A DNA stretch of 64,000 nt, from IMG/VR virus record IMGVR_UViG_3300044837_000085, positions 1 through 64,000 of that record, one strand, 5' to 3'. Shown here in pieces: positions 11,297-53,486 of this stretch (positions within the stretch are counted from its first letter, which is position 1; the number at the start of each line of letters is the position of its first letter). The DNA comes from a virus. The position numbers and the translations under genes are program-made. The notes beneath the pieces are model-generated. The model made no database searches and was not told the origin of the DNA. It was given only the letters and a program-made list of their open reading frames with translations.

Positions 11297-11404
11297 TCTC
11301 GCAAAATAGTGATGTAAAGGAATTAGGTCAAGGTCAACGATTTAAGTTGACGCCATTACTCTCAACGCTTATCAATGAGGTCAACGGAAAACGTTGGTCT
11401 CAGA

Positions 11405-12370
11405 ATGTCTCAGCACTTCCTCCTTTCGGCAAAGGCCCGTTCGCTAAGTTTAGCGAAGGTCGCCCGTTTGTCGGACGAGGAAGCCTATCAGACCTTCAAG
11501 CTGGTCCGTTGGGCCGCCACTGACGGCGCGCCATTCTGCCCTCGCTGCGGCTGTGTCGCGGTCTACACCTACGCGACCCGCAAGCTGTTCAAGTGCAAAG
11601 CCTGCAACCATCAATTCAGCGTCACGTCCGGGACGATCTTCGCCAGCCGCAAGCTTTCAATCCGCGATTACCTCTTGGCGATTGCGATCTTCGTGAACGG
11701 TGCGAAGGGTCACAGCGCCTTGCAATTGAGCCGTGACCTGGATTGCCAGTACAAGTCGGCGTTCGTCATGGCGCACAAAATCCGCGAAGCCCTCGCTTCG
11801 GAGTCGCGCGGCGCAACTGTCGCCGGTGAGGTCGAAATTGACGGTGCATATTTCGGTGGTCATGTGCGCCCGGCCAACAACAAGATCAATCGCCGCGACC
11901 GTCGCCTTGCTGAAAACCAAACCGGCAAACGCCGCGTGGTTGTCATCATGCGCGAGCGCGGCGGTCGCACGCTGCCTTTCGTGTTCAAGTCGGAAGATGC
12001 TTCCGTTGTGACGATTGCTCGCACCGTTGCTCCGGGCAGCATCGTTCATGCCGACGAAGCGACGCATTGGGACGCGCTACATGCGCGCTTCTTGACCAAG
12101 CGTATCAATCACTCTGAGGCGTACTCGACTGAGGAAGCCAACACCAATCAGGCGGAGTCGTTTTTCTCTCGCCTGCGCCGCGCTGAAATCGGCATCCACC
12201 ACCATATCGCCGGTCCGTATCTGTCGGCCTACGCGAGCGAAATGGCATGGCGGGAAAACAATCGCCGCGTCAGCAACGGCGAGCAATACCTAATGACGAC
12301 CAGCGCAGCGCTCACGCATCCGGTCTCACGGCAATGGAAGGGCTATTGGCAGCGATCATCCAATAGTTGA
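11405..12370 (+). CDS. IS1595-family transposase
   Basis: CPRCG..CKAC Zn ribbon, EVEIDGAYFGG, HADE, NQAESFFSRLRR. Confidence 0.95.
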   Translation: MSQHFLLSAKARSLSLAKVARLSDEEAYQTFKLVRWAATDGAPFCPRCGCVAVYTYATRKLFKCKACNHQFSVTSGTIFASRKLSIRDYLLAIAIFVNGAKGHSALQLSRDLDCQYKSAFVMAHKIREALASESRGATVAGEVEIDGAYFGGHVRPANNKINRRDRRLAENQTGKRRVVVIMRERGGRTLPFVFKSEDASVVTIARTVAPGSIVHADEATHWDALHARFLTKRINHSEAYSTEEANTNQAESFFSRLRRAEIGIHHHIAGPYLSAYASEMAWRENNRRVSNGEQYLMTTSAALTHPVSRQWKGYWQRSSNS

Positions 12371-13916: not shown

Positions 13917-14403
13917 GGCTATCTCCCCTGAAAACAGGCGGAGATAGTAGGATTGCAGGCAGCATTGCCGCCAGCCGTGCTAAGGTGAGTTTGCTACCTA
14001 ATGCCGGAAACCTGAGCAGCTATCTTCCGCCGAGTTGCTGGATCTGGTTCGCGACCCAATGTTGACGGAGCAACTGCGATTAGCAAAAGAGCGCGGAGAG
14101 CTCGGCGTGTTGTCTCGTCAGACACGCGACATAGACATTGAAGCCGCGACAATGGAAACGCTAGACACTGCTCTCGCTGAGTGCCGATGCTGGCATGCCA
14201 CTTATCCAGAAACGGATGACTGGGAACTGGTTTCGTGGCTTGAAGCTAGAATCCAGGATGAGATTATGACCAGGGCAATCAGTAAGATCGCAGGCGGTCA
14301 AAGAATACCCCACGGGGCCAGATAAGAATTATACACCCTTGGGGCCAGAACGAACTGATTTTGCCTTACCCCTGGATGCGGCTGATTTTGAGGAGGATTT
14401 TTA

Positions 14404-14730
14404 GTGGTGTCGAAATATTCAGGCTATCTAAAGCCTCATGAAAAGAGGATTCGAGGGCTCGCGCGCAAGGGTAAAAGTCCCATGGAAATTGGACGTATCC
14501 TTTACGACGAAGGCGTGCGTTCGCCGTTAGATACCAAGCATGACGGCGCAACTCGCGGCATCGACCATGCCAGGACATTCGGCGGGCTGGTGCGCCACAT
14601 GCTAAAGCAGGAGGATGAGAAGGCGCTGCGGGAACGCATTAAGCACGCGAAGAAAGAACTGCGAGATGCAGAGCGACTCCTTGGTTCTCTCATTGCGCGC
14701 CGGGAAAAGAAAGCCGCAAAGGCTCAATAA
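14404..14730 (+). CDS. hypothetical protein, possible HTH
   Basis: gaggagga RBS; LARKGKSPMEIGRIL. Confidence 0.6.
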   Translation: MVSKYSGYLKPHEKRIRGLARKGKSPMEIGRILYDEGVRSPLDTKHDGATRGIDHARTFGGLVRHMLKQEDEKALRERIKHAKKELRDAERLLGSLIARREKKAAKAQ

Positions 14731-14760
14731 CCCCCGGCTACGATTACTTTTCACCCCGAC

Positions 14761-15258
14761 TTGCGCCTTAATAGAGAGGAGGAGAAATTGTACGTTCACT
14801 ATTCGCCGCGCCGAGTTGACGTTGTTCAATCGCTCGAACAGGAATCAATTGCGCACTTCAAACCAAACGGCCTTTGGATTACCATCGAAGGAGAGGACGG
14901 TTGGAAAGATTGGTGCGAGAATAACGATTGGAGTAAGACATCGCTCAAGTTTGCCCATGACGTTTTGCTGAGCAACGACGCCAAGATACTGCGCATTTCG
15001 TCAGCGGCCGATATCTATGACCTGACGGATCGCTACACGCCAGCGAAGTCCAGAGATCATCCGTACTCGATGCGAATGATCGAATGGAAGCGGGTCGCCA
15101 AGGACTATCAAGGCATCCTAATCGTGCCCTATATTTGGTCCGAGCGTCTTAGCGAAACCAATCGCTGGTACTATGCCTGGGATTGCGCCTCTGGCTGCAT
15201 TTGGGATGCTGATGCTATCGAATCAATCCGCGTTCGCGCAATGGAATCCACGCCATGA
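14761..15258 (+). CDS. hypothetical phage protein
   Basis: KPNGLW...YQGI...WYYAWDCASGCIW. Confidence 0.7.
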   Translation: MRLNREEEKLYVHYSPRRVDVVQSLEQESIAHFKPNGLWITIEGEDGWKDWCENNDWSKTSLKFAHDVLLSNDAKILRISSAADIYDLTDRYTPAKSRDHPYSMRMIEWKRVAKDYQGILIVPYIWSERLSETNRWYYAWDCASGCIWDADAIESIRVRAMESTP

Positions 15259-15491
15259 TCGACACCGTAGCCAAGGCGATCATGCAATGGGCTATCCCGT
15301 TTAACGATTGGGATAGTCAGACAGAGGAAGTGCGCGAGCGGTGGCGAGGCGCGACTAGGGTTGTGATTGAAGCGATGCGCGAGCCGACAGACATAATGAC
15401 ACTCCAGCATGGCGGCAGAATCACAAATAATGAGGCTGCTTACGTCTGGCGAGACATGATCGACGCAGCACTCACCCCCGCTGACGGCTGA
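15255..15491 (+). CDS. hypothetical phage protein
   Basis: AMREPT...WRDMIDAAL phage-type motif. Confidence 0.65.
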   Translation: MIDTVAKAIMQWAIPFNDWDSQTEEVRERWRGATRVVIEAMREPTDIMTLQHGGRITNNEAAYVWRDMIDAALTPADG

Positions 15492-15537
15492 TTCCACGCT
15501 ACCCGTGGCTACGACTGATTTTGGAGAGGAGGATAAG

Positions 15538-16299
15538 ATGGACGAGGACGACTATAGAAATCCCAATCCGGATGACGCGACCGAGGTTGCTGCGATCGAG
15601 CTTTGCCGCATAGTTGGTCTTCTGCCCTGGGTTTGCGGTGATCAGCCCGGATTTCAAGGCGACTACAATATGAATTGGGCGCGTCATGAAATTGACCACG
15701 CGCTCGCCGTTCGATCTGCGATGTTGAAGGCGGGACTTCTTAATCCAAACGCATCGCCTGAGTTTGAATATCCAGACGGTCCTCGGGTTCGGATTGAAAT
15801 TGCGGCCGGATCCGGAGGCATCGAACCACAAGACTTTGCAATAATGATCCGACGAATGTACCTGCGATGGGCGGAGCGAAATGGAATCAAGGTAGAGCCC
15901 GGAAAAAGTCCCGGCGAGACGCTAGAATTTTCTGGAGAGCGAGCCGCGATGCTTCTCTCGGAAAATGGAGTTCACAGGATGGTGCGGATCAGTCCGCACG
16001 ACCGCGAGAACAGACGCCATACCAGCTTTGTCGCAGTCAAGGCCGCGCGATTGGTCAACCGTTGGGCGGTCCTGAGCGTCAATAGGCGCGAGTCGCATCT
16101 TTGGGGAAACCAGATTCGCTCCTACGTTTTTGATCCTTACAAAATGGTGAAGGACTTGCGAACCGGCGTTCAGCGCGAAGACGTTGATAATGTTCTCGAC
16201 GGAGACATTGACGATTTTCTCTTAGCAGCCAAGGCCGCTGGCTTTCCGCACAATCATGACGAAAACGGTCCAACTCCCGAAGCTGCGGTTATGGATTAA
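15538..16299 (+). CDS. peptide chain release factor 2-like protein lacking the GGQ domain
   Basis: AGSGG..QDFA..I.RMYLRWAE, ENGVHRMVRISPHD...RRHTSF, WGNQIRSYVFDPYKMVKDLRTG...VLDGDIDDF; no GGQ. Confidence 0.85.
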   Translation: MDEDDYRNPNPDDATEVAAIELCRIVGLLPWVCGDQPGFQGDYNMNWARHEIDHALAVRSAMLKAGLLNPNASPEFEYPDGPRVRIEIAAGSGGIEPQDFAIMIRRMYLRWAERNGIKVEPGKSPGETLEFSGERAAMLLSENGVHRMVRISPHDRENRRHTSFVAVKAARLVNRWAVLSVNRRESHLWGNQIRSYVFDPYKMVKDLRTGVQREDVDNVLDGDIDDFLLAAKAAGFPHNHDENGPTPEAAVMD

Positions 16300-16339
16300 A
16301 TATCACGGGCGCTTAATGCCCAACTGAAAGGACACAACC

Positions 16340-16690
16340 ATGTCACCCCCAAGATTCGTCCATAAGAAGATCACCGCAACCGACTTCAACAACGAACTCG
16401 CACGCCAGGGCATGAGCCCGCAGACCTTCACCCGGATCTGGTGCCAGAACCTCACCACCACGACACGATGGGCGAACGGGCAGAACGATATCCCGACATG
16501 GGTTCCGATCGCGTTGACGATGATGACGCTACCGAACGCCATGAGTACGGCAAGAACCGCAGCAGCAGCGATGATCGAGAAGGACACGCTTAACCCGCAC
16601 TTGGGGGACTTCCCTTATCTGCGGGCACGGCAGTTGCCGGAGGATGCGGACGACCCCATGGGGCCAGATGACGGTCGTGGGGCCAGATAA
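16340..16690 (+). CDS. HTH-like protein
   Basis: GMSPQTFTRI...TTTRWANGQNDIP. Confidence 0.6.
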   Translation: MSPPRFVHKKITATDFNNELARQGMSPQTFTRIWCQNLTTTTRWANGQNDIPTWVPIALTMMTLPNAMSTARTAAAAMIEKDTLNPHLGDFPYLRARQLPEDADDPMGPDDGRGAR

Positions 16691-16829: not shown

Positions 16830-16951
16830 CTTTTGGTAGTTGTAGAATGTCCGCTTTGGTATTGGGGTCTGGCTTCATGTTGGAAAATGTACTGCATTAT
16901 GCAGTACAGTCAAGCGAATTCGCTTGCGCTGTGATGCATGATGCAGTACAT
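16830..16951 (-). mobile_element. orphan IS-like end with palindromic subterminal repeats and a truncated ORF start
   Basis: atgtactgcatcatgca...tgtactgcataatgcagtacat followed by MKPDPNTKADILQLPK; it truncates the neighbouring ORF; no partner end found. Confidence 0.4.
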
Positions 16952-17221
16952 TAACCGTGCGTTGGGGGTAGCATCCGTATCGACCACATCAGCATGGAAA
17001 TAAGAAACGTAAGACTTACCTCTGATGAATTTGTGCCCTGATGTTAATATGCAGGTGCCGTCGCCCCTCTGGTGCCAACTACAAATGGACACTAAAAGAT
17101 TTTTCTTATTGGGACATGGATCATTGAGGACGATATGCAGATGCCCCCGCTCCCTGTCATGTTTGGGACCAGTGCCCGGAATATGAAGAGTGGTTCGTTG
17201 GAGTGGGTAAAATAGTTTCAT
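16910..17221 (-). pseudogene. putative toxin partner of the Panacea antitoxin, 3' end replaced by IS end
   Basis: HLHIVLNDP....LLVSI.S PemK-like pattern; overlaps the antitoxin stop codon. Confidence 0.5.
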
Positions 17222-17756
17222 GAACCGAAAAGGGAAGAAACTCTCCTCCGATAAGAAATTTCTTGCTCAATGTGATCCGGATCGGACTCACCAACCGCTT
17301 CTGCCATTTCACGATATGTGATTGGTAGGCGACCGCTTTTGACTTCCTTGTATTCTGGGCAATTGTCGTGGGTCCATTTTCGAATTTGGTGAGATGTCAT
17401 TTCACCAAACCGCTTCCAAATATTTCCCAACACATCCATTTCAGCATCGCTTAGTTCATCCAGAGATTCCCTCTCAATGACGCGCCGCGCGGGCTGAACT
17501 TTTTTGTTATCCTTCAAACTTACGAGAGATGACCACCCATCTTTGTCAATGTTACCATTGATGCCATTGAGTACGCTGGAACAGACGGGGCCGTCCTTCA
17601 TGGAAAATAGTTCGTCATAGAGCATGGGTTGCCCATGCCTAGAAACGAACTCTCGTTCTGCTAGGTAAATCAACTTAATAAGTTTGAGCTTTTCGATACC
17701 TGGCTGCCGACCCGCGAAGTAGGCCACAGCCTGAGCAGCCTTTCGGCTCTGAAATC
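17218..17756 (-). pseudogene. Panacea/SocA (DUF4065) antitoxin-like gene, 5' end cut by IS
   Basis: KLKLIKLIYLAER....GPV...IRKWTH..PEY. Confidence 0.8.
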
Positions 17757-17814
17757 CGGTATTATGGCGCAAACGCCACAAGAATTTCAGGCATCGCCAC
17801 CATAGCTTGCGGCT

Positions 17815-18261
17815 ATGCCACACGCCAAGATACTAACCAAGCAAGCCCTCTATACCCTCAGCCAATTGCATAGCGAGTTGGCGGGGAAGCTGAGCGCCAA
17901 CCGGCGGGAGACCAAGCGGCTACGGCTTTCGATATTCCAGGTTGAGGCCGTCATGAAGCTGCTCAGCCCGGAAGTGAATTTGCGGCTGATCGCGCCCAAG
18001 CGGCGAAATGTCGGCAATCCGTGGTTCAAGCGCGGGACACTCTCTAGGGCCGTCATAGACACGCTACGGCGGTCGGCGGAGCCCATGACGACCCGCCAGA
18101 TTACGGACGCTCTATTGGTTGGGAAGCAGCCAACAGCCAACCGGCACCAAACCATGGTCCTGCAAGCGGCGGTTCTGGCGATCCTGCGAAGGCGGAATGG
18201 GACGGCGGTAGTCGGCGGCGATACCGTGCCGCAACGGTGGCGTTTGAAAGAGACCGCTTGA
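17815..18261 (+). CDS. IS-end accessory protein, paralog of 13473-13916
   Basis: shared motifs, same position relative to IS end. Confidence 0.75.
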   Translation: MPHAKILTKQALYTLSQLHSELAGKLSANRRETKRLRLSIFQVEAVMKLLSPEVNLRLIAPKRRNVGNPWFKRGTLSRAVIDTLRRSAEPMTTRQITDALLVGKQPTANRHQTMVLQAAVLAILRRRNGTAVVGGDTVPQRWRLKETA

Positions 18262-19320: not shown

Positions 19321-19599
19321 ATGGCGCTTGGTGTTTATGAGACTTATGGGGTTGGAGTTCTGGGTAGTGTAGCTATCGAGATTGCCGCAGCGTTGAAATT
19401 AGCTGTGAAGATGGATGGCATATGCCCTCCAATATACAAGCGTCCCTTCTTCGTCGGCCTACGAATAATTTTCGCTCTACTGGCGGCCGGCCCATTGTCG
19501 GTGATGATGGATGCGCCAAGCTATTGGGCAGCATTTTATTATGGTGTTACAGCCCCCGTTCTGTTTGATCGACTGGCGCGCGGGCTACAGCCAGATTAG
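19321..19599 (+). CDS. small membrane protein (IS passenger)
   Basis: hydrophobic segments. Confidence 0.55.
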   Translation: MALGVYETYGVGVLGSVAIEIAAALKLAVKMDGICPPIYKRPFFVGLRIIFALLAAGPLSVMMDAPSYWAAFYYGVTAPVLFDRLARGLQPD

Positions 19600-20265
19600 C
19601 CGCCAACGTGGCGCTGCCAGTAGCCGGTGAAATCCACCGACTTGCCGCGCTTCATCGCCAGCGCCGCTACGCGGCTCACCTGATCGCCATTCGAGACGCG
19701 GCGGTTATCCTCCCGCCATGAACTTTCCTGCGCATAGCGGAGCAGATACGCGCCAGCGATATGGTGGTGGATGCCGATTTCGGCGCGGCGCAGGCGGCTA
19801 AAATATTCTTCAGCTTGGTTCGTGCAGGCACCGTCAAGGCTGTAAGCCTCTTGATGGTTGATGCGCTTCATTTCAAACCGTTCATGAAGGCCATCCCAAG
19901 ACGCGGCTTCGTCGGCATGAACCGTTGTGCCCCTCGCGATGCGGGCGCGAATGAAGGCGGAGGCTTGGCTTTCGGTATTGAACACGGCGGGCACTGAGTT
20001 GCCGCCGCGCTCGCGGACCACAACCACGACCTTGCGCTTGCCGTTCTGGTTACGCTGCAAGCGGCGATCGCGGCGATAGTCCTTTTGGTTGGCGGGCTTC
20101 ACATAGCCGCCGAAATAGCCGCCATCAACCTCAGCGGTTTTGCCTTCACCGCCGACAACGCGGCCACGCATTTCCTCAGCCATTGCTTCGCGCAGCTTGT
20201 GCAGCAGAACGAAAGCACACTTATAGGAAACGTTCAGATCGCGAGAGAGCGCCAGCGCGGACTTG
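19596..20265 (-). pseudogene. IS1595 transposase, N-terminus missing
   Basis: KSALALSRDL..EVDGGYFGG..HADE..GYWQR, highly similar to 11405-12370; no Zn ribbon. Confidence 0.9.
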
Positions 20266-20686
20266 CAAGCGGCTGCGCGAAAATGACCCCATTCACCACC
20301 AAGAACTACTCGGTCGGCAACGCACTCGCGCGCAGCAACGAAAGGATGAGGCGGCAAAATATGTTTTCGATTATCTTTGTGACAATCCCTGCGTCGATTG
20401 CGGTGAGATCAATCCGCTCAAGCTGACGTTCGATCATGTTCGCGGGGTAAAGGTGTGCGATGTCAGCACGGCCCACACAACAAAGCGATGGCCGCTCGCG
20501 CTGGTGCGTGAGGAGATAAGCAAATGCGATGTTCGCTGCTGGAACTGCCATATGGAACGAACAGCCCGTTTGCGCGGATATCGGCGGGTCAAGCTTTGGG
20601 ATGAGCATTGCCGTAAGTTGGCACCGGGTGAAGGTAACGCTCCCTCGTCTTCGGTTTTGGAGACCGCTGCTCTGCTATTGAGCTAA
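20263..20686 (+). pseudogene. HNH endonuclease, 5' end missing
   Basis: PCVDCGE...TFDHVRG...EISKCDVRCWNCH. Confidence 0.7.
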
Positions 20687-20696: not shown

Positions 20697-20773
20697 TGGT
20701 ACTGACGCAGTGATTCGAACACTTTCCACGAGATTCACAGTCCCGCTGCTCATTGCCATCGAGCATCGTCAGC
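20697..20773 (-). tRNA. tRNA-His(GTG)
   Basis: loop CTGTGAA, TTCGAAT T-loop, A73, no encoded G-1. Confidence 0.85.
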
Positions 20774-20774
20774 A

Positions 20775-20845
20775 TGGTCGCGAACGCGCGTGTCGATCGC
20801 GCCTGACAGCCGTATGAAAACCGTTTCCTCGCCGGAGGGATCGCG
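20775..20845 (-). tRNA. tRNA-Met/Ile2(CAT), atypical
   Basis: loop TTCATAC, short D-arm, encoded CCA. Confidence 0.7.
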
Positions 20846-20852
20846 TTGATTT

Positions 20853-20926
20853 TGGCAGCCGGTGACTGAATCGAACAGTCGTTCCAGGATTCAAAGTCCC
20901 GTCTCTTGCCACTAAAGGAACCGGCC
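20853..20926 (-). tRNA. tRNA-Gln(TTG)
   Basis: loop CTTTGAA, TTCGATT, encoded CCA. Confidence 0.85.
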
Positions 20927-20931
20927 ATAAT

Positions 20932-21006
20932 TGGTAGAGCCTGCGGGTGCCGACCCCGCTCCTGCGACTTGAAAGGCCGCGATCCTAGCCGATAGACGAA
21001 GGCTCC
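20932..21006 (-). tRNA. tRNA-Glu(TTC)
   Basis: loop CTTTCAA, encoded CCA. Confidence 0.85.
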
Positions 21007-21011
21007 ATGAA

Positions 21012-21086
21012 TGGCGCGGACTGCGTGAATCGAACACGCTTCACTAGGTTGGAAGCCTAGGGCAACAGCCAATATACCAAGCCCGC
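21012..21086 (-). tRNA. tRNA-Gly(TCC)
   Basis: loop CTTCCAA, TTCGATT, encoded CCA. Confidence 0.9.
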
Positions 21087-25394: not shown

Positions 25395-25589
25395 TCATAC
25401 GGCTCGCTTCGCGATCTGATACCCAATAACGAACGCCGCAACCTTGACCCGGCTCCGTCCCGCTTCTTCATGTGCGAGCCGGATCAGCTTCTGAGTGACA
25501 CCGAGTTTCTTGGCGAGGTATTTTATCTCATGCTTCTCGCTGGAGAGAAGCTTGCGGTCCATTTTGTGTGTTCGCTTCTTCATTGTCAT
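25395..25589 (-). CDS. DUF3606-like small protein
   Basis: DR.....EKHEIKYLAKKLGVT...IR.A....GRSR.KV. Confidence 0.65.
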   Translation of the reverse strand: MTMKKRTHKMDRKLLSSEKHEIKYLAKKLGVTQKLIRLAHEEAGRSRVKVAAFVIGYQIAKRAV

Positions 25590-26365
25590 GATCCTTCCGT
25601 TTTAATTATCCAATAGTCCGATCCGTACTTCGATGATCCGAGATAGGCTTGCGGTATGAAGCAGTCACCCTTGCTCCCCCACGTCGCGCTCCACGAATTT
25701 CGTGCCGTGAAGTGATTGGCATGCTGGTTGTAGCCGCAAATATAAACGCAATGTCCGCCCAACATCGCTTCTCCGGTCTTCGGCATCGGCACGATTCCGG
25801 TAGATGCAACAGCATCGCTCTCGAAACTCTCGAATACCGCGAACCCGACGATCACCGGATATCCAGCAGCAAGCGCAGACTTGATGGCGTAGGTTGATAT
25901 CGCTACGCGCTCGTAGCTGATCGCGCGAAACTTCACCGCATCCGCATAAGCGCTCGCTGGCGGCTTGGTTTTGAATTTACCAATCGAGTACGGCCACAGC
26001 TTCTCATGTGCGACGCCAATTTTAGCGGCGCATTTGATCCCATCACGGATCGATGCGCCCGCATCTGATTGAACCGTGCCCTCCATGTTGCGTTCGTCGT
26101 AGTAAAGCTGGAGGCGCGACATGGGAAAATCTTTTTGGCCGGCGTTGATCAGCGCGTGACGAAGCGCGCCGGTTATGCCGTGGCTTGTGCAAGCGCCCAG
26201 GGCACCTTGGTCCATCACTGGCGGGCAATGCGCGCGTAAATCCACAACTGCCGGAATTCTCGCCACAGTCGGCACGTAGAGATGATCGCGCGGATCGCGT
26301 AAATCTCTGATGCAGCCGTACCAGGCGTTGCGATGTTCCGATTTGGTGGTCTTTGATGAAGTCAT
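25586..26365 (-). CDS. C1 (papain-like) cysteine peptidase
   Basis: VDLR, DQGALGACT, GGHCV, RNSW catalytic motifs. Confidence 0.9.
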   Translation of the reverse strand: MTSSKTTKSEHRNAWYGCIRDLRDPRDHLYVPTVARIPAVVDLRAHCPPVMDQGALGACTSHGITGALRHALINAGQKDFPMSRLQLYYDERNMEGTVQSDAGASIRDGIKCAAKIGVAHEKLWPYSIGKFKTKPPASAYADAVKFRAISYERVAISTYAIKSALAAGYPVIVGFAVFESFESDAVASTGIVPMPKTGEAMLGGHCVYICGYNQHANHFTARNSWSATWGSKGDCFIPQAYLGSSKYGSDYWIIKTEGS

Positions 26366-26842
26366 GACGATGTTTCCTCTGGTGAGATCAAAGCCCTCGC
26401 ATTTATTGTTGCTGTCGTATCGGAATATCCAGCAGCTTCCCACGTCCGGTAAAAGGCGCACATCTTGCCGCGTTCGAATTCATTCCTGACGCCACCGTGA
26501 AGGCATTCTGTTAATTCACGATCGATAAATGTCTTGAGGTCTTGGCGATATCGCTCGCGTCGATATCCGCGCTTGAACTCGCCGATGAAATCTCGGAACG
26601 CGCTCACGCTGCACTCTCCGGTTTGCATCCTTTTGCGTCGTAATTTTCCAACGCGAGTTTTACGAGTATTCGATCTCCGGACCTCGCCGCAGCAATGACG
26701 GACAACATCCGGTAGTAGTGATCGGCGTAGACGGTTTGAAGCGCGGGCTCGCCTACTCTCATTGACCACATCGGAGCTGGTGCCATCTCTACCGCTTTCG
26801 GTAGTTCAAATCGTTTATAGTTCTTTGGAATTTTGAAGGGCT

Positions 26843-31759: not shown

Positions 31760-32068
31760 TCATGCCGAGCCTCCCATGAGGTCTACCAGCGCGCCGATCG
31801 GGCCGGACGGCTTCCCGTCGGCGTCCCGCGTGATGGCGTGGCTGATGGTCTCGATCGGGACACCGTGCTGCAAGGCGAGGCTGAGCAGCACGGCAGAGTC
31901 GCGCGCCAAAGTCTCCGCCTGGGTTCCGGACTTCGCGCAGTTCAGGAACACTTCCGCCACAGGTCCGGACGGCCTCGCGCGACCGAGGCCAACGACGTAC
32001 TTCTGGCCCCAATGCTCAAAGCGGAGCGTTTCGTGGGTCCGCCGATTTGGAAGCGTTGTGCGAGTCAT
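31760..32068 (-). CDS. TSCPD-like (class II RNR C-terminal-like) domain protein
   Basis: LPNRR...EVF...K.G...SLALQHGVP. Confidence 0.7.
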   Translation of the reverse strand: MTRTTLPNRRTHETLRFEHWGQKYVVGLGRARPSGPVAEVFLNCAKSGTQAETLARDSAVLLSLALQHGVPIETISHAITRDADGKPSGPIGALVDLMGGSA

Positions 32069-34776
32069 TCCGCCGCCTCCGAGTCGATAGGAGCGAATAG
32101 GCTTCCTGGCTCGAACGGTGCTTTGTCTTTCCCGAGTTGCTTGACCATGTGACGGGAGCCCTCTTCCCGGCCCATAAACGCAGCCTCGATGCGCGCTTTG
32201 GCGAGCGTGGCGTATTCCGGGTTCAGTTCTATTATCGTGCTGTTGCGCCCCAGCGTGGCCGCTACAAGGGCCGTAGTGCCGGAGCCGCCGAACGGATCTA
32301 ATACCTTGGCCGGCTCCGGTTCATGTTCTGGGCAATCGCATGAGGGCGTCCACCCAGTAGTGACGGATCGTGCGGGGCTAACCATAGTACCGCTTGTGCC
32401 AGTCCGCGTGCCGCGCTCTTCATTGCGCGCCGTCTTCCGAATAACCATCGCTGTTTTTTCGGTCTCACGGGACCAAGGTGAGCCGCAGTGTGGGCAGTTG
32501 CCCGCTTCCGATGTGCCTGCCTTTATCAGCGGCTCGATCAACGCGACTGGGAAAGTATTGCCGGTAATGAAAGGCTTGCCAGCACGGCGCGCTACCCAGA
32601 ATGTTGATTCAACAGAAGGGCACCAAACTGTACCGGAATATCGTTCCCTACCGATCGGCGTATGCACGCCATCTGCACTGCGCAAAGTGAGCCAGCGACC
32701 ATCAGTAAGATATAAAACGAAACAGCCTTCTTTTTTCGGCGCAATATGGCCGCGCCAACCGAGGCGCATACCCATACCTTGGATGATGTCCAGAAAACCT
32801 CGATCTTTCTGAACTACACAGCATCGACCGTCAGATCGGCGATGGCCGTCGCCGTCGATAACAGCGTCAACAAACGCTCGAATCTCTGAAATCGGCCATG
32901 ATAGCCAAGACCACGATGCATCCTTGCGGGGGCTTGCCATGTAGAGAGACTCCGCCACGTCCCCTCTCACTGAAAAGACGATCTCAATACTTGGGCGACC
33001 GCGCCATTCACGCGAGCGTTTGCTTTCTTTGAAGTCCGCTCCTAATTCACGGAGCAATGAGCGGATCGCTTCAACCTTCTTGGGATTTGCGCTTAATGAT
33101 TGGTATATCCTGATCCATTGGCCGCGTTTTTTCTCGCCCTCCGTAAGATACCATCCAAGCAGCGCCGCAAAAGTCTCGCCGTATCCGGGAGATTCAGACA
33201 CAACCAAATTTGCAGAGACGGGAACCTGCATACCAGGTTTTAGTTTTCCGGCTTCAACGACGCCCTCGCCGCTAACTCTGCGACGGACTAGGCAGCGATG
33301 GTTCTCGGTTAGCCGCTGAGAACTGTCGCGCTTTTCGATAGCCACAAGTTCGCCGTCAAACGGGTAGCGATGGAATGTAGCGCGTTGCCAGAACGCAATA
33401 CCCTTATCCCTGTCGTAGGCCGCAATTTCGTCGCCGTCACTTAGCTCTGCGTGCAATCGCCAGCCCCGCGGCGTGAGCGCCTCAGTAGCATCATCAACAC
33501 AAGCAAAATGGGCCTCGCTGAAGCCTTGAGGATTGGCATCGATCGCCAGCGGCGTCCCGTCGCCGTCCGATATCAAGCCGAAAGGAATTTCGATCGACGA
33601 AAAGAAAAGGTCGGTGTTGCGGAAGTTGCGTTCATTGAGAACTTCCGTGGTGCTTTCGTGCCACGAATCTTTCGCTTTGATATTCGTCTCATCGCCTACC
33701 GATTTTGGCGTAACGCCGGGCTTGCGGACAACCGCCTTCATATTCCCGTTTGTCTTCGCCCCACCGTTGGCGCGCGCTGACCCGGTTTGCGAGGCCACGT
33801 TCTGCGCAACCCGCGAATTAGTTGATGCAGAAGCGGCCTTGCGCACCGCGTCCGCGTCATACCAATAACGTTCCGATTTCGTCAGCAGCGCCACTTGCTC
33901 CAGAGAGTTCGCCGGACGATCCGTGACTGATTCCGGCATGCCGTTCCGCTTGATCCACGGCAGCTTTGAGCGAATCCACCAACCGTCGTCCTGAAGCGCG
34001 ATAAATAGCCGCTCCGGGACCATGCACAAATCCTTCGCTTTGAGGTATCCGCCACCGCGCCAGCGCAGCCCATCGTCACGCAAGCCCCAACCACCAACGT
34101 CAACGTCATCCCTGTCTTCGCCTGCGGTTATGCGCTTGCCGTTAGCGACGATCCTGCCGGTATTTCCCGCCTGCCCACCTGATCCTTTATTGCCGCTCCT
34201 GCCGCGACGATCTCCAGATTCGTGATCCGGCACAAATATTGGTCCGACTGTCGAGAACGGTTTATCCCGGAAGGTGCGATCATCATCGCCCTTCAGTTTT
34301 GTGTCCGCCGCACTTCGGCCGTTCGGTGCCGTGGCGTAGCAGTCGCCGTAATTGATCCAACAGACGCCAGTCGGCTTAAGGACGCGGCGCACCTCACGAA
34401 AGACATCGACCATGACGGAGATATGCTCGGCAAGAGTCGACTCCATACCGATCTGTTCGTCGACATAGACGGCCTCACACTTTGAACAATGGCCACCAGT
34501 AAACTTCGTCATGTTGGCGTATGTGTCGCCGTTCTTGCCTGGGTTTCCCGGACCCTTGACAGAATTCGCCCATGGTGTGCGATCGGTGCCAACTCGATCG
34601 TGTTGGCAATCAACGTCTCCACCTTCCCACTTTCCAGTTCCGTAATTCCGAAGTCCCCAGTAGGGCGGCGAGGTGCAGACACAATCAAAATGATCGTCCG
34701 GCAACGTCTTGAGCATTGCTCGCACGTCCCCGAGAAGCATCGTAACCTTGCCGTTGAGAAAAGTTTCAGCGGTCAT
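32065..34776 (-). CDS. N4/N6 DNA methyltransferase with intein
   Basis: TSPPYWGLR, HFA|TFP split by intein, VLDPFGGSGTT, IELNPEY. Confidence 0.9.
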   Translation of the reverse strand: MTAETFLNGKVTMLLGDVRAMLKTLPDDHFDCVCTSPPYWGLRNYGTGKWEGGDVDCQHDRVGTDRTPWANSVKGPGNPGKNGDTYANMTKFTGGHCSKCEAVYVDEQIGMESTLAEHISVMVDVFREVRRVLKPTGVCWINYGDCYATAPNGRSAADTKLKGDDDRTFRDKPFSTVGPIFVPDHESGDRRGRSGNKGSGGQAGNTGRIVANGKRITAGEDRDDVDVGGWGLRDDGLRWRGGGYLKAKDLCMVPERLFIALQDDGWWIRSKLPWIKRNGMPESVTDRPANSLEQVALLTKSERYWYDADAVRKAASASTNSRVAQNVASQTGSARANGGAKTNGNMKAVVRKPGVTPKSVGDETNIKAKDSWHESTTEVLNERNFRNTDLFFSSIEIPFGLISDGDGTPLAIDANPQGFSEAHFACVDDATEALTPRGWRLHAELSDGDEIAAYDRDKGIAFWQRATFHRYPFDGELVAIEKRDSSQRLTENHRCLVRRRVSGEGVVEAGKLKPGMQVPVSANLVVSESPGYGETFAALLGWYLTEGEKKRGQWIRIYQSLSANPKKVEAIRSLLRELGADFKESKRSREWRGRPSIEIVFSVRGDVAESLYMASPRKDASWSWLSWPISEIRAFVDAVIDGDGHRRSDGRCCVVQKDRGFLDIIQGMGMRLGWRGHIAPKKEGCFVLYLTDGRWLTLRSADGVHTPIGRERYSGTVWCPSVESTFWVARRAGKPFITGNTFPVALIEPLIKAGTSEAGNCPHCGSPWSRETEKTAMVIRKTARNEERGTRTGTSGTMVSPARSVTTGWTPSCDCPEHEPEPAKVLDPFGGSGTTALVAATLGRNSTIIELNPEYATLAKARIEAAFMGREEGSRHMVKQLGKDKAPFEPGSLFAPIDSEAAE
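32557..33501 (-). mobile_element. 315-aa intein with LAGLIDADG homing endonuclease
   Basis: starts CVDDATEALT, block B TENHRC, LLGWYLTEG and AVIDGDG, ends FITGN followed by Thr. Confidence 0.9.
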
Positions 34777-34978
34777 TCCGAAGCGGCCTCGCGCCAATAA
34801 ACCCATTTGAACGTAGACCCCTGAACCGTCTGCGCCCTCCGCTTGATCTTCCCTTCCTCGCTTAGTTTGTAGAGATTCTGACCGACTGTTTCTTCAGCCC
34901 AGCAGTCTAGTGTTCGCCATATCTCGCGAGTCGAGAGCGCGTTTGATTCTCCGAATGGCACATGAGGTGTGACGTCGA

Positions 34979-36079
34979 TCATGCCGCCACCGCCTTTCGC
35001 GTCTTCGATCCGCACGGCATGAGAACGTTGACCGCGCTCGGCTCCGATCGATCGACAATCCGCAGCGGCTCGCGCTCGCTCTTGATGTAGAGGTCGAGTT
35101 TTTCACCGCGCATCGACTTCAGGGCTTCGCTGAACTGCGCTGCGCGAAGGCAAACGAACTTACCCTCCGCAGATTCGCATTCGATTGTTTCGGCGCCGTC
35201 CGCAACGCCGGTTGCCGAGATTGATATCTCGTCAGCGCCAACTGAAATATCGATCAGGTCCGAGCCGCTGAAATCCCCTACCGCCCGAAGTCGCGTCAGG
35301 CATTCCAGCATCGCGTCCTTATCGACCGTGATGCATCCTTCGACAGCAGCGGGGATTGTGCGACGATAGGTCTCCGGAAATGTCGAGTCGATGATCTTCG
35401 AACTGTAGACGCGCCCTTCGGAACTGATCGAAATGATGCGGCTCGAGATCGTGAGTTCGCCGCCACCGATCTTGATAATTTCGTCCGCCGCAGTGCGTGG
35501 GATGATCGCGCCCACGAATCCCTTCGCTTCCAAGCCGGTCGAGAACCGCATCAGGAAGTTGCCGTTGGTCGCCACGGAGCAGACCTTGCCTTCGTCGCTG
35601 TGCAAGTAAAATCCCTGAAAACACAGCCGAGACTCCTTGACGTCGATCGTCGGGCGAGGTCGGACAAGCAGTTGTTCAAGGTCCGCGGAGGATACGGACA
35701 GCTTGAACCCATCCTCAGCGGTCAGTGCGTTCGGCATGTCGGCGGCTGGTAAAATCGGTAGCTTGTACCTGGATCGCCCCGACTTGATGATCGCGTCCTG
35801 ACCAATAACCTCGATCGCGACGCTCGCCGCCTTGGGCAGACCGGCAACCAGCCGAGCGAACGGCGCGCCTGGGATTGCACAGGCACCGGGCGCGGCGACT
35901 TCAGCTTCGATCGTCGCTTCGCTGGAAGAATCCAGATCGTGTCCGAGCAGAACAAGTTTGTCGTCTACTGCCTCGCACCGCACATGCTGCAAGATCGGAA
36001 TAACGGTATGCGGCTTGGTGCGGTCACAGGGGCCGCGAAGTGCGGTCGAGAGATCGCCCGCATTTACGGTGCATTTCAT
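34979..36079 (-). CDS. dnaN: DNA polymerase III beta clamp homolog
   Basis: IPILQHV, DLD, VATNG, IIPR, SKIIDSTFP, VLMP. Confidence 0.9.
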   Translation of the reverse strand: MKCTVNAGDLSTALRGPCDRTKPHTVIPILQHVRCEAVDDKLVLLGHDLDSSSEATIEAEVAAPGACAIPGAPFARLVAGLPKAASVAIEVIGQDAIIKSGRSRYKLPILPAADMPNALTAEDGFKLSVSSADLEQLLVRPRPTIDVKESRLCFQGFYLHSDEGKVCSVATNGNFLMRFSTGLEAKGFVGAIIPRTAADEIIKIGGGELTISSRIISISSEGRVYSSKIIDSTFPETYRRTIPAAVEGCITVDKDAMLECLTRLRAVGDFSGSDLIDISVGADEISISATGVADGAETIECESAEGKFVCLRAAQFSEALKSMRGEKLDLYIKSEREPLRIVDRSEPSAVNVLMPCGSKTRKAVAA

Positions 36080-36395
36080 GGCTTCCGCCCCACCGCATCA
36101 TGAAGTCTGACGATGGCTCGATTTGCTCTTTCGGACTGCGGGACGTCGAATTTCAGCGGGGCGACACGCTCGCATTCATCCAGGAATGCATGGATCGCTT
36201 CCTCTGCATGATCTTCGACGTCGTCTCCGGTATCTTCGAGTTCGATAATCTCGCCCTGAAGTTCCTCGATCCGCGCTTCCTTCTTGTCCAGATGGCTATC
36301 CGCGTCGACCAGCAGCTTTTGCAGCCGTGAAATCTCTTCATGACAGCGCGTCACGGTCTTCGGATATTCAACGTCGCTTTCGTCAAGCAAATAGC

Positions 36396-36641
36396 TCATG
36401 CCGATACCTCCACAAGTCGATATCCCTTGCCGCGGACGTTGTTCACGTCGAAACCGTAGGGCCGAAGCTTCTTTCTCAGATTGCAGACCCAGACTTTGCG
36501 AGAGCCTTTATTGTGGTTCCTGCAGTGGGGAAGAATCTTTGGATAGGATTCGCGCAGATCGGTGAGTAGCCGCGCCTCAGCCGGCCGCAGACCGTAGACG
36601 CGGGCCGCGATGATCTCGCCTTCGTTGAGGAACGTCACCAT
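36396..36641 (-). CDS. OmpR/CtrA-type winged-helix DNA-binding domain only
   Basis: KVWVCNLRKKL...VNNVRGKGY resembles CtrA DVFICKLRKKL...IETVWGRGY. Confidence 0.7.
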   Translation of the reverse strand: MVTFLNEGEIIAARVYGLRPAEARLLTDLRESYPKILPHCRNHNKGSRKVWVCNLRKKLRPYGFDVNNVRGKGYRLVEVSA

Positions 36642-37183
36642 CACGCAACGTTCCTTTGCGCTCTGCGATATTCCTGCGTTCGTAACTGAACGATCTGCGC
36701 TCGTTCTAGCTGTGTGCGCTTGATGGGATTGCGGACGATCTCCCAACAATGCGGGCAGTAGCTTTCGCCCTTTCGCGTTTCGTTACCGCATGCGAGATAG
36801 CCCGGTCCTGGCGGTTCGTCCGCGATATATCGACACTGGTTGGGCGACTCGTTCTTGAAGTCGCGAAGATCGGCAAACGGAATACGCAGATCGCCAACGT
36901 ATGGCGCTGGTTTGATGGGTGGAAAATCTGCCATCTTCTTTTCCTCATTGGGCGCCCGGTGGCGGTGGTTACGGTCGTAAAGTCTCTGGCGCTCGTTTCG
37001 TCTGCGCTGCAATTCCTCTTGGGGTAAGCGCGGCTTTGTCGCCCGGCTCGGGAGGTTAAGACGGCTGCATTTTCCTATTGCCGCATTCCTCGTGATCCCC
37101 ATTGCTGCTGCTATTTCGGACATGGACATGCCGGTCGCATGAAGGCGTTTTAGTTCTGCGGTTTTGTAGTCATTCCAAATCAT
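36641..37183 (-). CDS. gcrA: GcrA-family cell-cycle regulator
   Basis: W.....ELKRLHATGMSMSEIA..MG.TRNAAIGK..RL; CRYI...CG.....SYCPHC. Confidence 0.85.
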   Translation of the reverse strand: MIWNDYKTAELKRLHATGMSMSEIAAAMGITRNAAIGKCSRLNLPSRATKPRLPQEELQRRRNERQRLYDRNHRHRAPNEEKKMADFPPIKPAPYVGDLRIPFADLRDFKNESPNQCRYIADEPPGPGYLACGNETRKGESYCPHCWEIVRNPIKRTQLERAQIVQLRTQEYRRAQRNVA

Positions 37184-37725
37184 GCCACCCTCGCGAATTC
37201 GCCAAAGTGCTCATGAGCCGCGCGGACATATGCGGAGTGCGCCTCTTCCGCAGTATGGAAGTAGCCCAGGAAAATGAGACGCTTGTTGCCGTTCTCGTTG
37301 ATCTTTATTTGACTTCGCCACTTCATGCCTTTGCGACAGGCGTGATAGAACGCGCCCTTCAATCCGGCGCGATTGTTCGATTGAGCTCCCCTGTTCTGCT
37401 TTTGCTCGGAAGATGTCGCTATCCGGAGGTTGTCGATGGCATTATTGGAAGGATCGTTATCCTTGTGATCTATTTCGGCGCCGCCGATCTGGATTCCATG
37501 AATATAAATCCAAGCTAGCCGATGCGCGGCAAACTGCCCAAGTCCTTTAACGCCAATGTAAATATAACCAAGCCGCCTCTTGGTCCCTGCGATATCTCCA
37601 GCCTTTCTCTTGCCGCCGCGCGTATCATTCTTCCAGCGGAATATTCCTGTCGCGTGATCGTAGCTAAACAGTTCGTGCAACAGCGCTTGGTTGGGAAGCT
37701 TACGCAATCGACCCTCCAAGCTCAC
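37180..37725 (-). CDS. HNH endonuclease with AP2 domain
   Basis: [33 protein letters not shown]. Confidence 0.9.
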
Positions 37726-38953
37726 GGGTTATCGCTTCGACATCGGCATTAAGCTGAGCGTCAATTCTGCGCAGTTCGCTTATCTTTTTAGCGCCGTGAT
37801 AAACCGAACTGTGATCTCTTCCGCCGAACCTGCGGCCAATCTCCGGCAGAGACTTGAGGGTCAGCACCTTCGAAAGATAATAACCAACTTGGCGCGGCCT
37901 CACGACGGCTGCGGTACGTCGCGCCGACAGAATGTCGGAACGAGTCACGCCATAATGCCGGGCGCAAGCTACCTGTATTTCGTCGATCCTGATCTTGCGG
38001 GGTTCCGTTGGAAGTATCAGATCGCGTATTTCGCGCTCCGCCATATCCAATGTGATGACGCATTCATTGAGTTTGCTTTGAGCCAAAAGCCGATTGACTG
38101 CGGCCTCGATGTCGCGCCCGCATTTGACAACCGCGCCTACAATGAATTCCCGAACCGTATCCGGGATATCAAACGTCGGATGATAGAGCCGCGCAGCCTC
38201 GATCCGATGCTGCAGAATGTCTATCCGTTGCTCCTCAGCCGGCCTTCCGATCTCAACGACAAGGCCAGCGACGAGGCGCGATCTGGTCCTTTCATCCAGT
38301 ATCTCAAGATCGCTCGGCAAACGGTCGGCGGCTAGGACAACTTGTCTGCCACCATCGAGCGCGGCGTTTACCGTATGACAGAACTCGGCATGGGTCGGTT
38401 TGCCCTGCAGGAACTGGAGGTCGTCGATGATAAGCACGTCAAGACAGCGAAGCGAATGTTTGAACTCCACCGCCGCTTGCCGCTTGATCGAGTCAAAGAA
38501 GCTGTAGACGAATTTTTCAGCCGTGAGATAAAGCACCTTGCGGTCTTCGCAATTTCCCGCCAGCGCGATTGCTTGGAGTAGATGTGTTTTGCCGAGCCCT
38601 ACGCCAGCATGAATGTAGAGCGGATTGAACATGACCGGATCGCCACGGCGTCCGTCAGCGATCTGACGGGCTGCGGCATGGGCAAGATTGTTGCTGCGAC
38701 CAATTGAAAATCCGGCGAAGGTGAGCCGCGGATCAAGCGATGACCCTCCCAGGTCATGATGCGCCTTGGCGTCGGCCATCGGATCTTTCGCACGGACGAT
38801 CGCGGCCTTCGGCACAGGGATATCCAGCATGACGGTTGCTTTCCGCGGTGAATTGAAAAGACGGTCTCGGCGGTCCTTGCGCGCAGCGATGCGTTCCGTG
38901 AGCGGGACGTCGAGATAGGGGTCGTGCTGAACGAGCATCGCAATTGCTTCCAT
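37700..38953 (-). CDS. dnaA: DnaA homolog (AAA+ domain III and DNA-binding domain IV)
   Basis: [47 protein letters not shown]. Confidence 0.92.
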
Positions 38954-53408: not shown

Positions 53409-53486
53409 GCGCTCGTAGCTCAGCCGGATTAGAGCAGCCGCCTTCTAAGCGGCAGGTCGCAGGTTCGACTCCCGCCGAGCGCACCA
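53409..53486 (+). tRNA. tRNA-Arg(TCT)
   Basis: canonical cloverleaf, loop CTTCTAA, TTCGACT, encoded CCA. Confidence 0.95.

Follow-up and report, generated by a model that had tools for sequence, protein, structure and literature searches.

What use would a phage have for a release factor that keeps the parts that read the stop codon and has lost the part that releases the peptide? The locus that raises this question lies in a window of 64,000 nucleotides, the first 64 kb of an IMG/VR record of 104,614 bp that is estimated to be 100% complete. The remainder of the record encodes a large terminase, a portal, a capsid-protease fusion and a tape measure protein, and on the strength of these genes we regard its bearer as a genuine tailed phage. 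In release factor 2 (RF2), stop-codon reading is joined to catalysis by domain 3, whose GGQ domain cuts the peptide from the tRNA. Viruses attack initiation, elongation and tRNAs; in the literature we found no phage protein shown to act at the step of stop-codon recognition, and full-text searches found no description of an RF2 without domain 3. The phage protein described here, which we call mini-RF2, has precisely this architecture.

The mini-RF2 open reading frame is real and intact, and it is preceded by a strong ribosome-binding site. The first-pass annotation, made from the sequence alone, had placed the gene at 15538-16299, and these limits are borne out by GGAGAGGAGG before the ATG at one end and the TAA stop at the other. 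An in-frame GTG at 15505 offers an alternative start upstream, with no ribosome-binding site like GGAGAGGAGG; because that element precedes the ATG alone, we take the start to be ATG 15538 rather than GTG 15505. The features of the gene and its product, in residue numbers of the 253-aa protein, are as follows.

15523..15532, + strand: Shine-Dalgarno-like GGAGAGGAGG, 5 nt ahead of the ATG at 15538, read directly from the sequence
15538..16299, + strand: mini-RF2 coding sequence, 253 aa plus TAA stop (open reading frame listing; Pfam, NCBIfam and phmmer matches)
15538..15786, + strand: N-terminal extension, residues 1-83, acidic (pI 4.3), predicted helical with low confidence, lineage-specific
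15787..16050, + strand: RF2 domain 2, residues 84-171, with helix alpha5 and the codon-recognition sheet (phmmer, pLDDT >90, VIA-align)
15808..15825, + strand: alpha5 tip, G91-E96 (GSGGIE), counterpart of RF2 GAGGTE
15991..15999, + strand: SPH tripeptide where RF2 has SPF (translation)
16012..16029, + strand: RRHTSF strand, equivalent to E. coli RF2 212-217
16051..16098, + strand: linker of ~16 residues in place of domain 3 (GGQ) and helix alpha7 (alignment gap; low pLDDT)
16099..16242, + strand: switch-loop remnant HLWGNQ and RF2 domain 4, residues 188-235 (RF2 ~311-355)
16243..16296, + strand: C-terminal tail, AAG-F/L-P ... AAVMD, conserved in the nearest subfamily only (P0003, P0122, P0123, P0124)
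16297-16299, + strand: TAA stop of the mini-RF2 reading frame

Comparison with PDB sequences by phmmer resolves the protein into RF2 domain 2 and domain 4, joined by a linker of ~16 residues: residues 84-169 align with RF2 ~123-217 and residues 186-230 with RF2 ~311-355 (E 1e-29), and the gap in this alignment indicates that ~95 residues of domain 3, including GGQ and helix alpha7, have been swapped for ~16. The family models tell the same story. Pfam PCRF matches at 1e-20 over the second half of the domain; Pfam RF-1 (PF00472) matches over the last 25 model positions only (92-116), at 13 bits against a cut-off of 35 bits; and the NCBIfam prfB model TIGR00020 matches in two stretches at 152.4 bits, below its curated whole-protein cut-off of 370. 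By both the missing core of the Pfam RF-1 match and the phmmer gap, RF2 domain 3 with its GGQ is absent from the protein. No model specific for mini-RF2 was found in Pfam, NCBIfam or PHROG. The SPH tripeptide sits inside SPHDRENRRHTSF at 15991-16029, with the Ser and Pro of SPF kept and the Phe replaced by His. The linker sequence is not conserved among family members, and its end, HLWGNQ, retains the switch-loop Trp equivalent to E. coli W319.

The predicted structure agrees. An AlphaFold model built on 142 aligned sequences, where a single-sequence model reached a pLDDT of just 37, gives the domain 2/4 part a pLDDT >90, and VIA-align superposes this part on E. coli RF2 (1GQE) with a Z of 22.2 and an rmsd of 2.4 A over 156 residues at 45% identity, model residues 88-247 (264-aa numbering) matching 122-365 of the 1GQE chain with domain 3 skipped. 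RF2 also ranks first in Foldseek (E 1e-13); the strong fold matches listed are all bacterial RF1 or RF2, and aeRF1-type chains are not among the matches listed. The N-terminal extension, by comparison, is modelled at a pLDDT of 46-79 and is missing from most family members. We considered whether it might be a decayed RF2 domain 1, and this idea is unsupported: hhalign of residues 1-86 against an RF2 alignment returns a probability of 0.3%, the extension shows no similarity to the N-terminus of P0128, the one relative compared that is of similar length, and an Atlas search with it gave no usable match. It has no Pfam or NCBIfam match either. The main propositions of the first-pass annotation, that the protein is made of domains 2 and 4 of RF2 and has no GGQ domain, that SPF has become SPH and that the N-terminus is unrelated to RF2 domain 1, therefore stand, and the comparison of a predicted structure with RF2 that it had proposed bears out the fold of the two retained domains.

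That annotation had also proposed a search for phage homologues with the same deletion, and such homologues exist. The exact protein is a singleton cluster known from one contig. Its closest homologue, P0003, at 51% identity, shares with it the deletion, the SPH and the C-terminal tail. When 1.84 billion representatives were searched with a profile, the best 150 included 19 further short single-stretch proteins of 119-270 aa, each with domain 2 joined to domain 4, and a scan of IMG/VR found 54 loci, mostly encoding full RF2 with GGQ, eight of which, from six distinct phages, encode forms without domain 3 (112-197 aa). The resulting collection comprises 26 mini-RF2s, this phage's included; IMG/VR virus records carry seven distinct members of it, and four of these records have an estimated completeness of 100%. 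The junction in this protein is the same as in P0003, P0122-P0124, P0128 and 20 others, and relatives at 37-55% identity share both the architecture and the functional residues. Re-sampling showed two mini clusters on 21 and 16 contigs and two others with 12 and 7 variant members, with microdiversity and every reading frame intact. Because the closest homologues lack GGQ too, the deletion is neither a one-off event nor a misassembly; the retention of GGQ in all close homologues, which the first-pass annotation had named as its refutation, is not what the homologues show.

Among GenBank phages and PLSDB plasmids no mini was recognised: the matches were ordinary prfB genes, none of the records covered 80% or more of the query, and the two GenBank phage matches examined closely, H1 and H2, are both full RF2. 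All 80 loci listed in a metagenome scan encode full RF2, and full RF2s dominated the output of a word-indexed search with the family alignment. The ESM Atlas contains PCRF-only clusters of 57-149 members, which we note as a lead only. We also considered a split RF2 whose GGQ partner is encoded elsewhere, and this arrangement is ruled out: neither PF00472 nor a GGQ domain occurs elsewhere in the complete 104,614-bp genome, and none occurs elsewhere in five of the six other mini-RF2 virus records, of which three have a rated completeness of 100%, a fourth of 92%, and the fifth is a provirus rated at 53%; two of the five have terminal repeats.

Did this architecture arise once? A tree of the 26 minis and full RF2s was built on the 137 shared columns of domains 2 and 4. 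In this tree 14 minis, this phage's included, group together with P0128 as sister (SH-aLRT 89-90, which on 137 columns is not decisive), and the other 12 scatter among the full RF2s of different lineages. Forcing all 26 to be monophyletic costs 180 units of log likelihood (delta lnL) and is rejected by the AU test (p 0.002). The clearest case is P0125: over domain 2 and domain 4 it matches a full bacterial RF2 of 366 aa, P0045, at 81% and 89% identity, and relative to that protein it lacks residues ~230-311 and domain 1. P0125 stands for a 90% cluster, and a variant that differs by two residues is encoded on a virus contig, L006. Given the rejection of a single clade and the closeness of P0125 to a full bacterial RF2, domain 3 was lost more than once, and the domain boundaries are the same in the independent lineages. 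Judged from the tree and from P0125, then, phages have trimmed captured prfB to the same two-domain body on more than one occasion, and this recurrent origin of one trimmed architecture argues for a useful role. For the phage in question, the RF2-like part is closest to alphaproteobacterial RF2s and the genome carries a GcrA gene, on which grounds we consider the host to be probably an alphaproteobacterium.

The decoding elements of the 26 minis were compared with those of 116 true RF2s. The four fixed positions of the alpha5 tip, G-x-G-G-x-E, are kept in 25, 21, 22 and 23 of the 26, with Asp at the Glu position in three more; E-x-G-x-H-R-L-V-R is kept in 23-26 of 26 and Q-I-R-S-Y in 19-25 of 26. 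Of the tripeptide, the Ser is present in 25 minis and the Pro in all 26. The RRHTSF strand is preserved in 23-26 of 26 (R 26/26, H 24/26, T 25/26, S 24/26, F 26/26). The third residue of the tripeptide is relaxed, with F in 14 minis, H in 6, Y in 3, and also W, I and S, against F in 107 and Y in 8 of the 116 RF2s. His is confined to the minis: six of the 26 have SPH, and not one of the 116 full RF2s does. Since P0147, which has SPH, falls outside the core clade, the change from Phe to His may have arisen more than once. The switch-loop Trp equivalent to W319 is found in 15 of 26. This phage's own protein has the alpha5 GxxE, the Ser-Pro, RRHTSF, the switch-loop Trp and QIRSY. On these counts, the elements that would contact the stop codon are conserved in the minis about as they are in true RF2. 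They comprise the determinants of codon recognition in domain 2 with the adjoining strand and loop, and their conservation lends indirect support to the first-pass suggestion that the protein could sit in stop-codon A sites without release. We also considered whether the minis are domains 2 and 4 made more basic and prone to stick to RNA; this was rejected, as their net charge does not differ from that of RF2 (p 0.97).

The structure of RF2 bound with the rescue factor ArfA helps in the interpretation of this pattern. In E. coli RF2 numbering the SPF motif is 205-207 and the switch loop 315-323, with W319; ArfA pairs with residues 213-217, SPF is bound neither to ArfA nor to the ribosome in the complex, and SPF mutations leave ArfA-mediated release intact (PMC5378476). 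SPF-type residues are thus dispensable for ArfA-dependent action of RF2, and their retention in the minis points to codon reading.

[quoted passage not shown] During infection it would enter the ribosomal A site at UGA or UAA, where the SPH variant may shift the preference for the third base, and, being unable to release the peptide, would compete with the host factor. Binding would probably be reversible, because helix alpha7 and domain 3 are missing, and what would probably follow is a delay in RF2-dependent termination, accompanied by increased readthrough, frameshifting or pausing, and not a permanent block. Candidate benefits to the phage are host shut-off, the tuning of its own gene expression and the covering of the A site. 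Among the fold matches is 6OST, which we take to be a time-resolved structure of compact, pre-accommodated RF2 on the ribosome and which would fit a decoding body that engages before domain 3 docks. As a broader and still more tentative proposal, phages may repeatedly have turned stolen host prfB genes into dead readers of UGA and UAA that compete with RF2, a new class of viral termination inhibitors in which SPH retunes codon choice and which would give stop-codon-specific control of host and phage synthesis early in infection.

There are counterpoints to A-site binding. Just 15 of the 26 minis have the switch-loop Trp, and helix alpha7 is gone; since the open, stably bound state of RF2 relies on the switch loop and helix alpha7, and should not form in the absence of that helix, affinity may be low. 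A strong blocker of RF2 would also harm the phage itself, because ~79% of its own genes end in TGA or TAA (rough open reading frame calls). Stop-codon binding in the A site leaves the N- and C-terminal extensions of the phage protein unaccounted for, and the recurrent, recent capture of host prfB would also fit mimicry directed at a host-specific partner, as opposed to the universally conserved decoding centre.

That last point leads to the idea of a decoy or sponge, in which mini-RF2 would mimic the domain 2/4 surface of RF2, soak up an RF2-binding factor and act away from the A site; its target could be a rescue adaptor of the ArfA, BrfA or ArfT type, a regulator, or a host toxin or defence protein directed at RF2. 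In the phage protein RRHTSF, the edge strand, is kept, and so is the Trp of the switch loop that ArfA contacts; new minis have repeatedly arisen from host-like RF2 (the 81-89% identity of P0125 to a bacterial RF2 fits host-specific mimicry), and the conserved C-terminal tail of the nearest subfamily could be a binding motif. ArfA, however, is a beta/gamma-proteobacterial factor and the host here is probably an alphaproteobacterium, no conserved neighbour gene is common to the seven phage loci, and the decoy is weakened by the conservation of the codon-reading elements: the tip of alpha5, the first two residues of the tripeptide, Ser-Pro, and the His-Thr of the strand are conserved as in real RF2, and a pure ArfA-type decoy would not need SPF-type residues because SPF is unbound in the ArfA-RF2 complex (PMC5378476). 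We regard a decoy as unlikely. A related thought, that mini-RF2 binds the A site as a competitor would but is favoured because it protects, covering stop codons or the decoding centre against RelE-type mRNA nucleases or decoding-centre ribotoxins, or parking ribosomes in the manner of a hibernation factor, draws on the observation that RF1 protects A-site stop codons from RelE cleavage, weak RF1 mutants being hypersensitive to RelE (PMC2680264), and on Balon, a hibernation factor related to release factors that lacks GGQ and sits in the A site (PMC10901736). The mini-RF2 gene also adjoins a toxin-antitoxin-like pair with a Panacea antitoxin. At the other loci, however, no toxin-antitoxin or defence genes are linked to mini-RF2; Balon has no codon-reading motif, whereas the minis retain theirs; and a non-releasing protein would itself stall translation, all of which makes a shield distinctly unlikely.

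Reuse of the RF2 body off the ribosome, as an RNA binder that stabilises or regulates certain transcripts, has a precedent in chloroplast PrfB3, which binds the petB 3' UTR (PMC5897788), and the domain 2/4 part of the phage protein is indeed basic (pI 9.1-9.5). Basic charge is no family trait, however, given the absence of a difference between minis and RF2, and PrfB3 has lost both SPF and GGQ, whereas the minis keep the codon-reading elements at the level of RF2, so that we consider this use of the fold improbable. Finally, the singleton status of the exact protein, known from one contig, might suggest a dead remnant of a captured host prfB or an assembly artefact. This we hold to be very improbable in view of the intact reading frame and strong ribosome-binding site, the relatives at 37-55% identity with the same architecture and functional residues, the independent and repeated sampling of several clusters, and the identical domain boundaries in independent lineages.

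How does a trimmed RF2 of this kind compare with known proteins? With RF2 itself (PrfB; TIGR00020; PF03462 and PF00472; 1GQE) it shares the fold of domains 2 and 4 at a Z of 22.2, and it differs in lacking domain 3, GGQ, helix alpha7 and domain 1 and in having SPH for SPF; from its domain content we would predict that it cannot catalyse peptide release. PrfH (RF-H), which is paired with RtcB and rescues damaged ribosomes, is likewise a shortened class I relative without domain 1, and it acts on ribosomes in special states. It reportedly keeps a working GGQ domain (PMC9304027), which the phage protein does not have, and although PrfH-ribosome structures are among the fold matches, they match the phage protein much more weakly (Z 8-10, against 22 for RF2). 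ArfB (YaeJ) is a mirror image: it is a release factor reduced to a single module, a stand-alone GGQ domain with a C-terminal tail (PMC3061065, PMC3950681), and so has the catalytic domain only and works independently of the codon, whereas the phage protein has the codon-reading body only. The best functional analogy is Balon, an aeRF1/Pelota-type hibernation factor that lacks GGQ and occupies the A site without releasing peptide (PMC10901736). This likeness is probably one of function and not of family; Balon has an aeRF1 fold unrelated to RF1/RF2, has lost NIKS, acts independently of mRNA, works with EF-Tu and is cellular, not viral. PrfB3 of plant chloroplasts derives from RF2, has given up translation termination and binds the 3' UTR of petB (PMC5897788); it has lost the SPF and GGQ motifs, whereas the phage protein deletes the whole GGQ domain and retains the codon-reading elements. 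Mini-RF2 is an RF2 derivative of a new, recurrent architecture, and its role is probably new.

If A-site binding proves to be true, mini-RF2 would be a natural, genetically encoded and codon-specific competitor of RF2, and it would reveal a new way in which phages take over translation or tune it. It would also provide a tool with which to raise readthrough of UGA and UAA or to trap termination complexes for structural work, and it would serve as a natural test of how far a release factor can be reduced and still read stop codons. If it is a decoy instead, it would point to a new RF2-binding factor that is important in infection.

The surroundings of the gene add context. Mini-RF2 lies within a block of small genes on the + strand whose functions are unassigned; the neighbouring reading frames are without Pfam match, and its neighbours are almost all of unassigned function. 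Doublets of GGGGCCAGA at 14314/14341 and 16660/16679 (+) flank a five-gene block, 14404-16690, that contains mini-RF2, and may be the boundaries of a transcription unit. The first-pass placement of the gene in an early region is tentative, being drawn from gene layout only. A conserved partner gene was considered and dropped, since blastp found no neighbour gene common to the seven phage mini-RF2 loci, and across loci we saw no common theme among the neighbours. At one locus, in provirus L014 (6242-8318), mini-RF2 directly follows a large serine recombinase gene, and at another, on phage contig L006 (4026-4693), it is followed 56 nt later by a tRNA-Thr(UGU).

Downstream of the block is a SocA/Panacea-domain antitoxin gene, 17218-17823 (-) (PF13274, 1e-18), which overlaps by 4 bp a downstream reading frame of 103 aa and unassigned family, 16910-17221 (-). 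On sequence features the pair, 16910-17823 (-), looks like a PanA-type toxin-antitoxin; it is convergent with the mini-RF2 block and forms a separate operon. Two IS1595-family transposase genes (DDE_Tnp_IS1595), 11375-12370 (+) and 19596-20357 (-), lie in the accessory region of the phage.

The stop codons of the phage were also considered. By crude gene calls, TGA is the stop codon of 9 among the 34 genes of the first 22 kb, whereas in the rest of the genome it ends 71 of 126 (Fisher p 0.003), and in the block around mini-RF2 genes mostly end in TAA, which is only a hint that genes expressed alongside mini-RF2 avoid UGA. An alternative genetic code or suppressor tRNA was rejected: code 11 gives intact structural genes, and the phage's five tRNAs, a cluster of His, Gln, Glu and Gly at 20697-21086 (-) and a separate tRNA-Arg(UCU) at 53409-53486 (+), include no suppressor.

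A module at 32065-38953 (-) encodes DnaA, an HNH endonuclease, GcrA (PF07750, 8e-20), a small winged-helix protein, DnaN and a 913-aa N6/N4 DNA methylase with a LAGLIDADG-like insert. Such a module suggests that the host is an alphaproteobacterium and that the phage interferes with its cell cycle. At 25586-26461 (-) the phage encodes a cysteine protease domain of the papain family (Peptidase_C1, 1e-13). Lastly, beyond the window, at 94743-98247 (-) of the genome (L005 10746-14247), two adjacent reading frames match a single portal family of 859 positions (phrog_2271), the one of 514 aa and the other of 646 aa, each corresponding to either its front or its back portion. They lie in different frames with 19 nt between them, which could reflect a split or fused portal/minor-head arrangement, or a frameshift.
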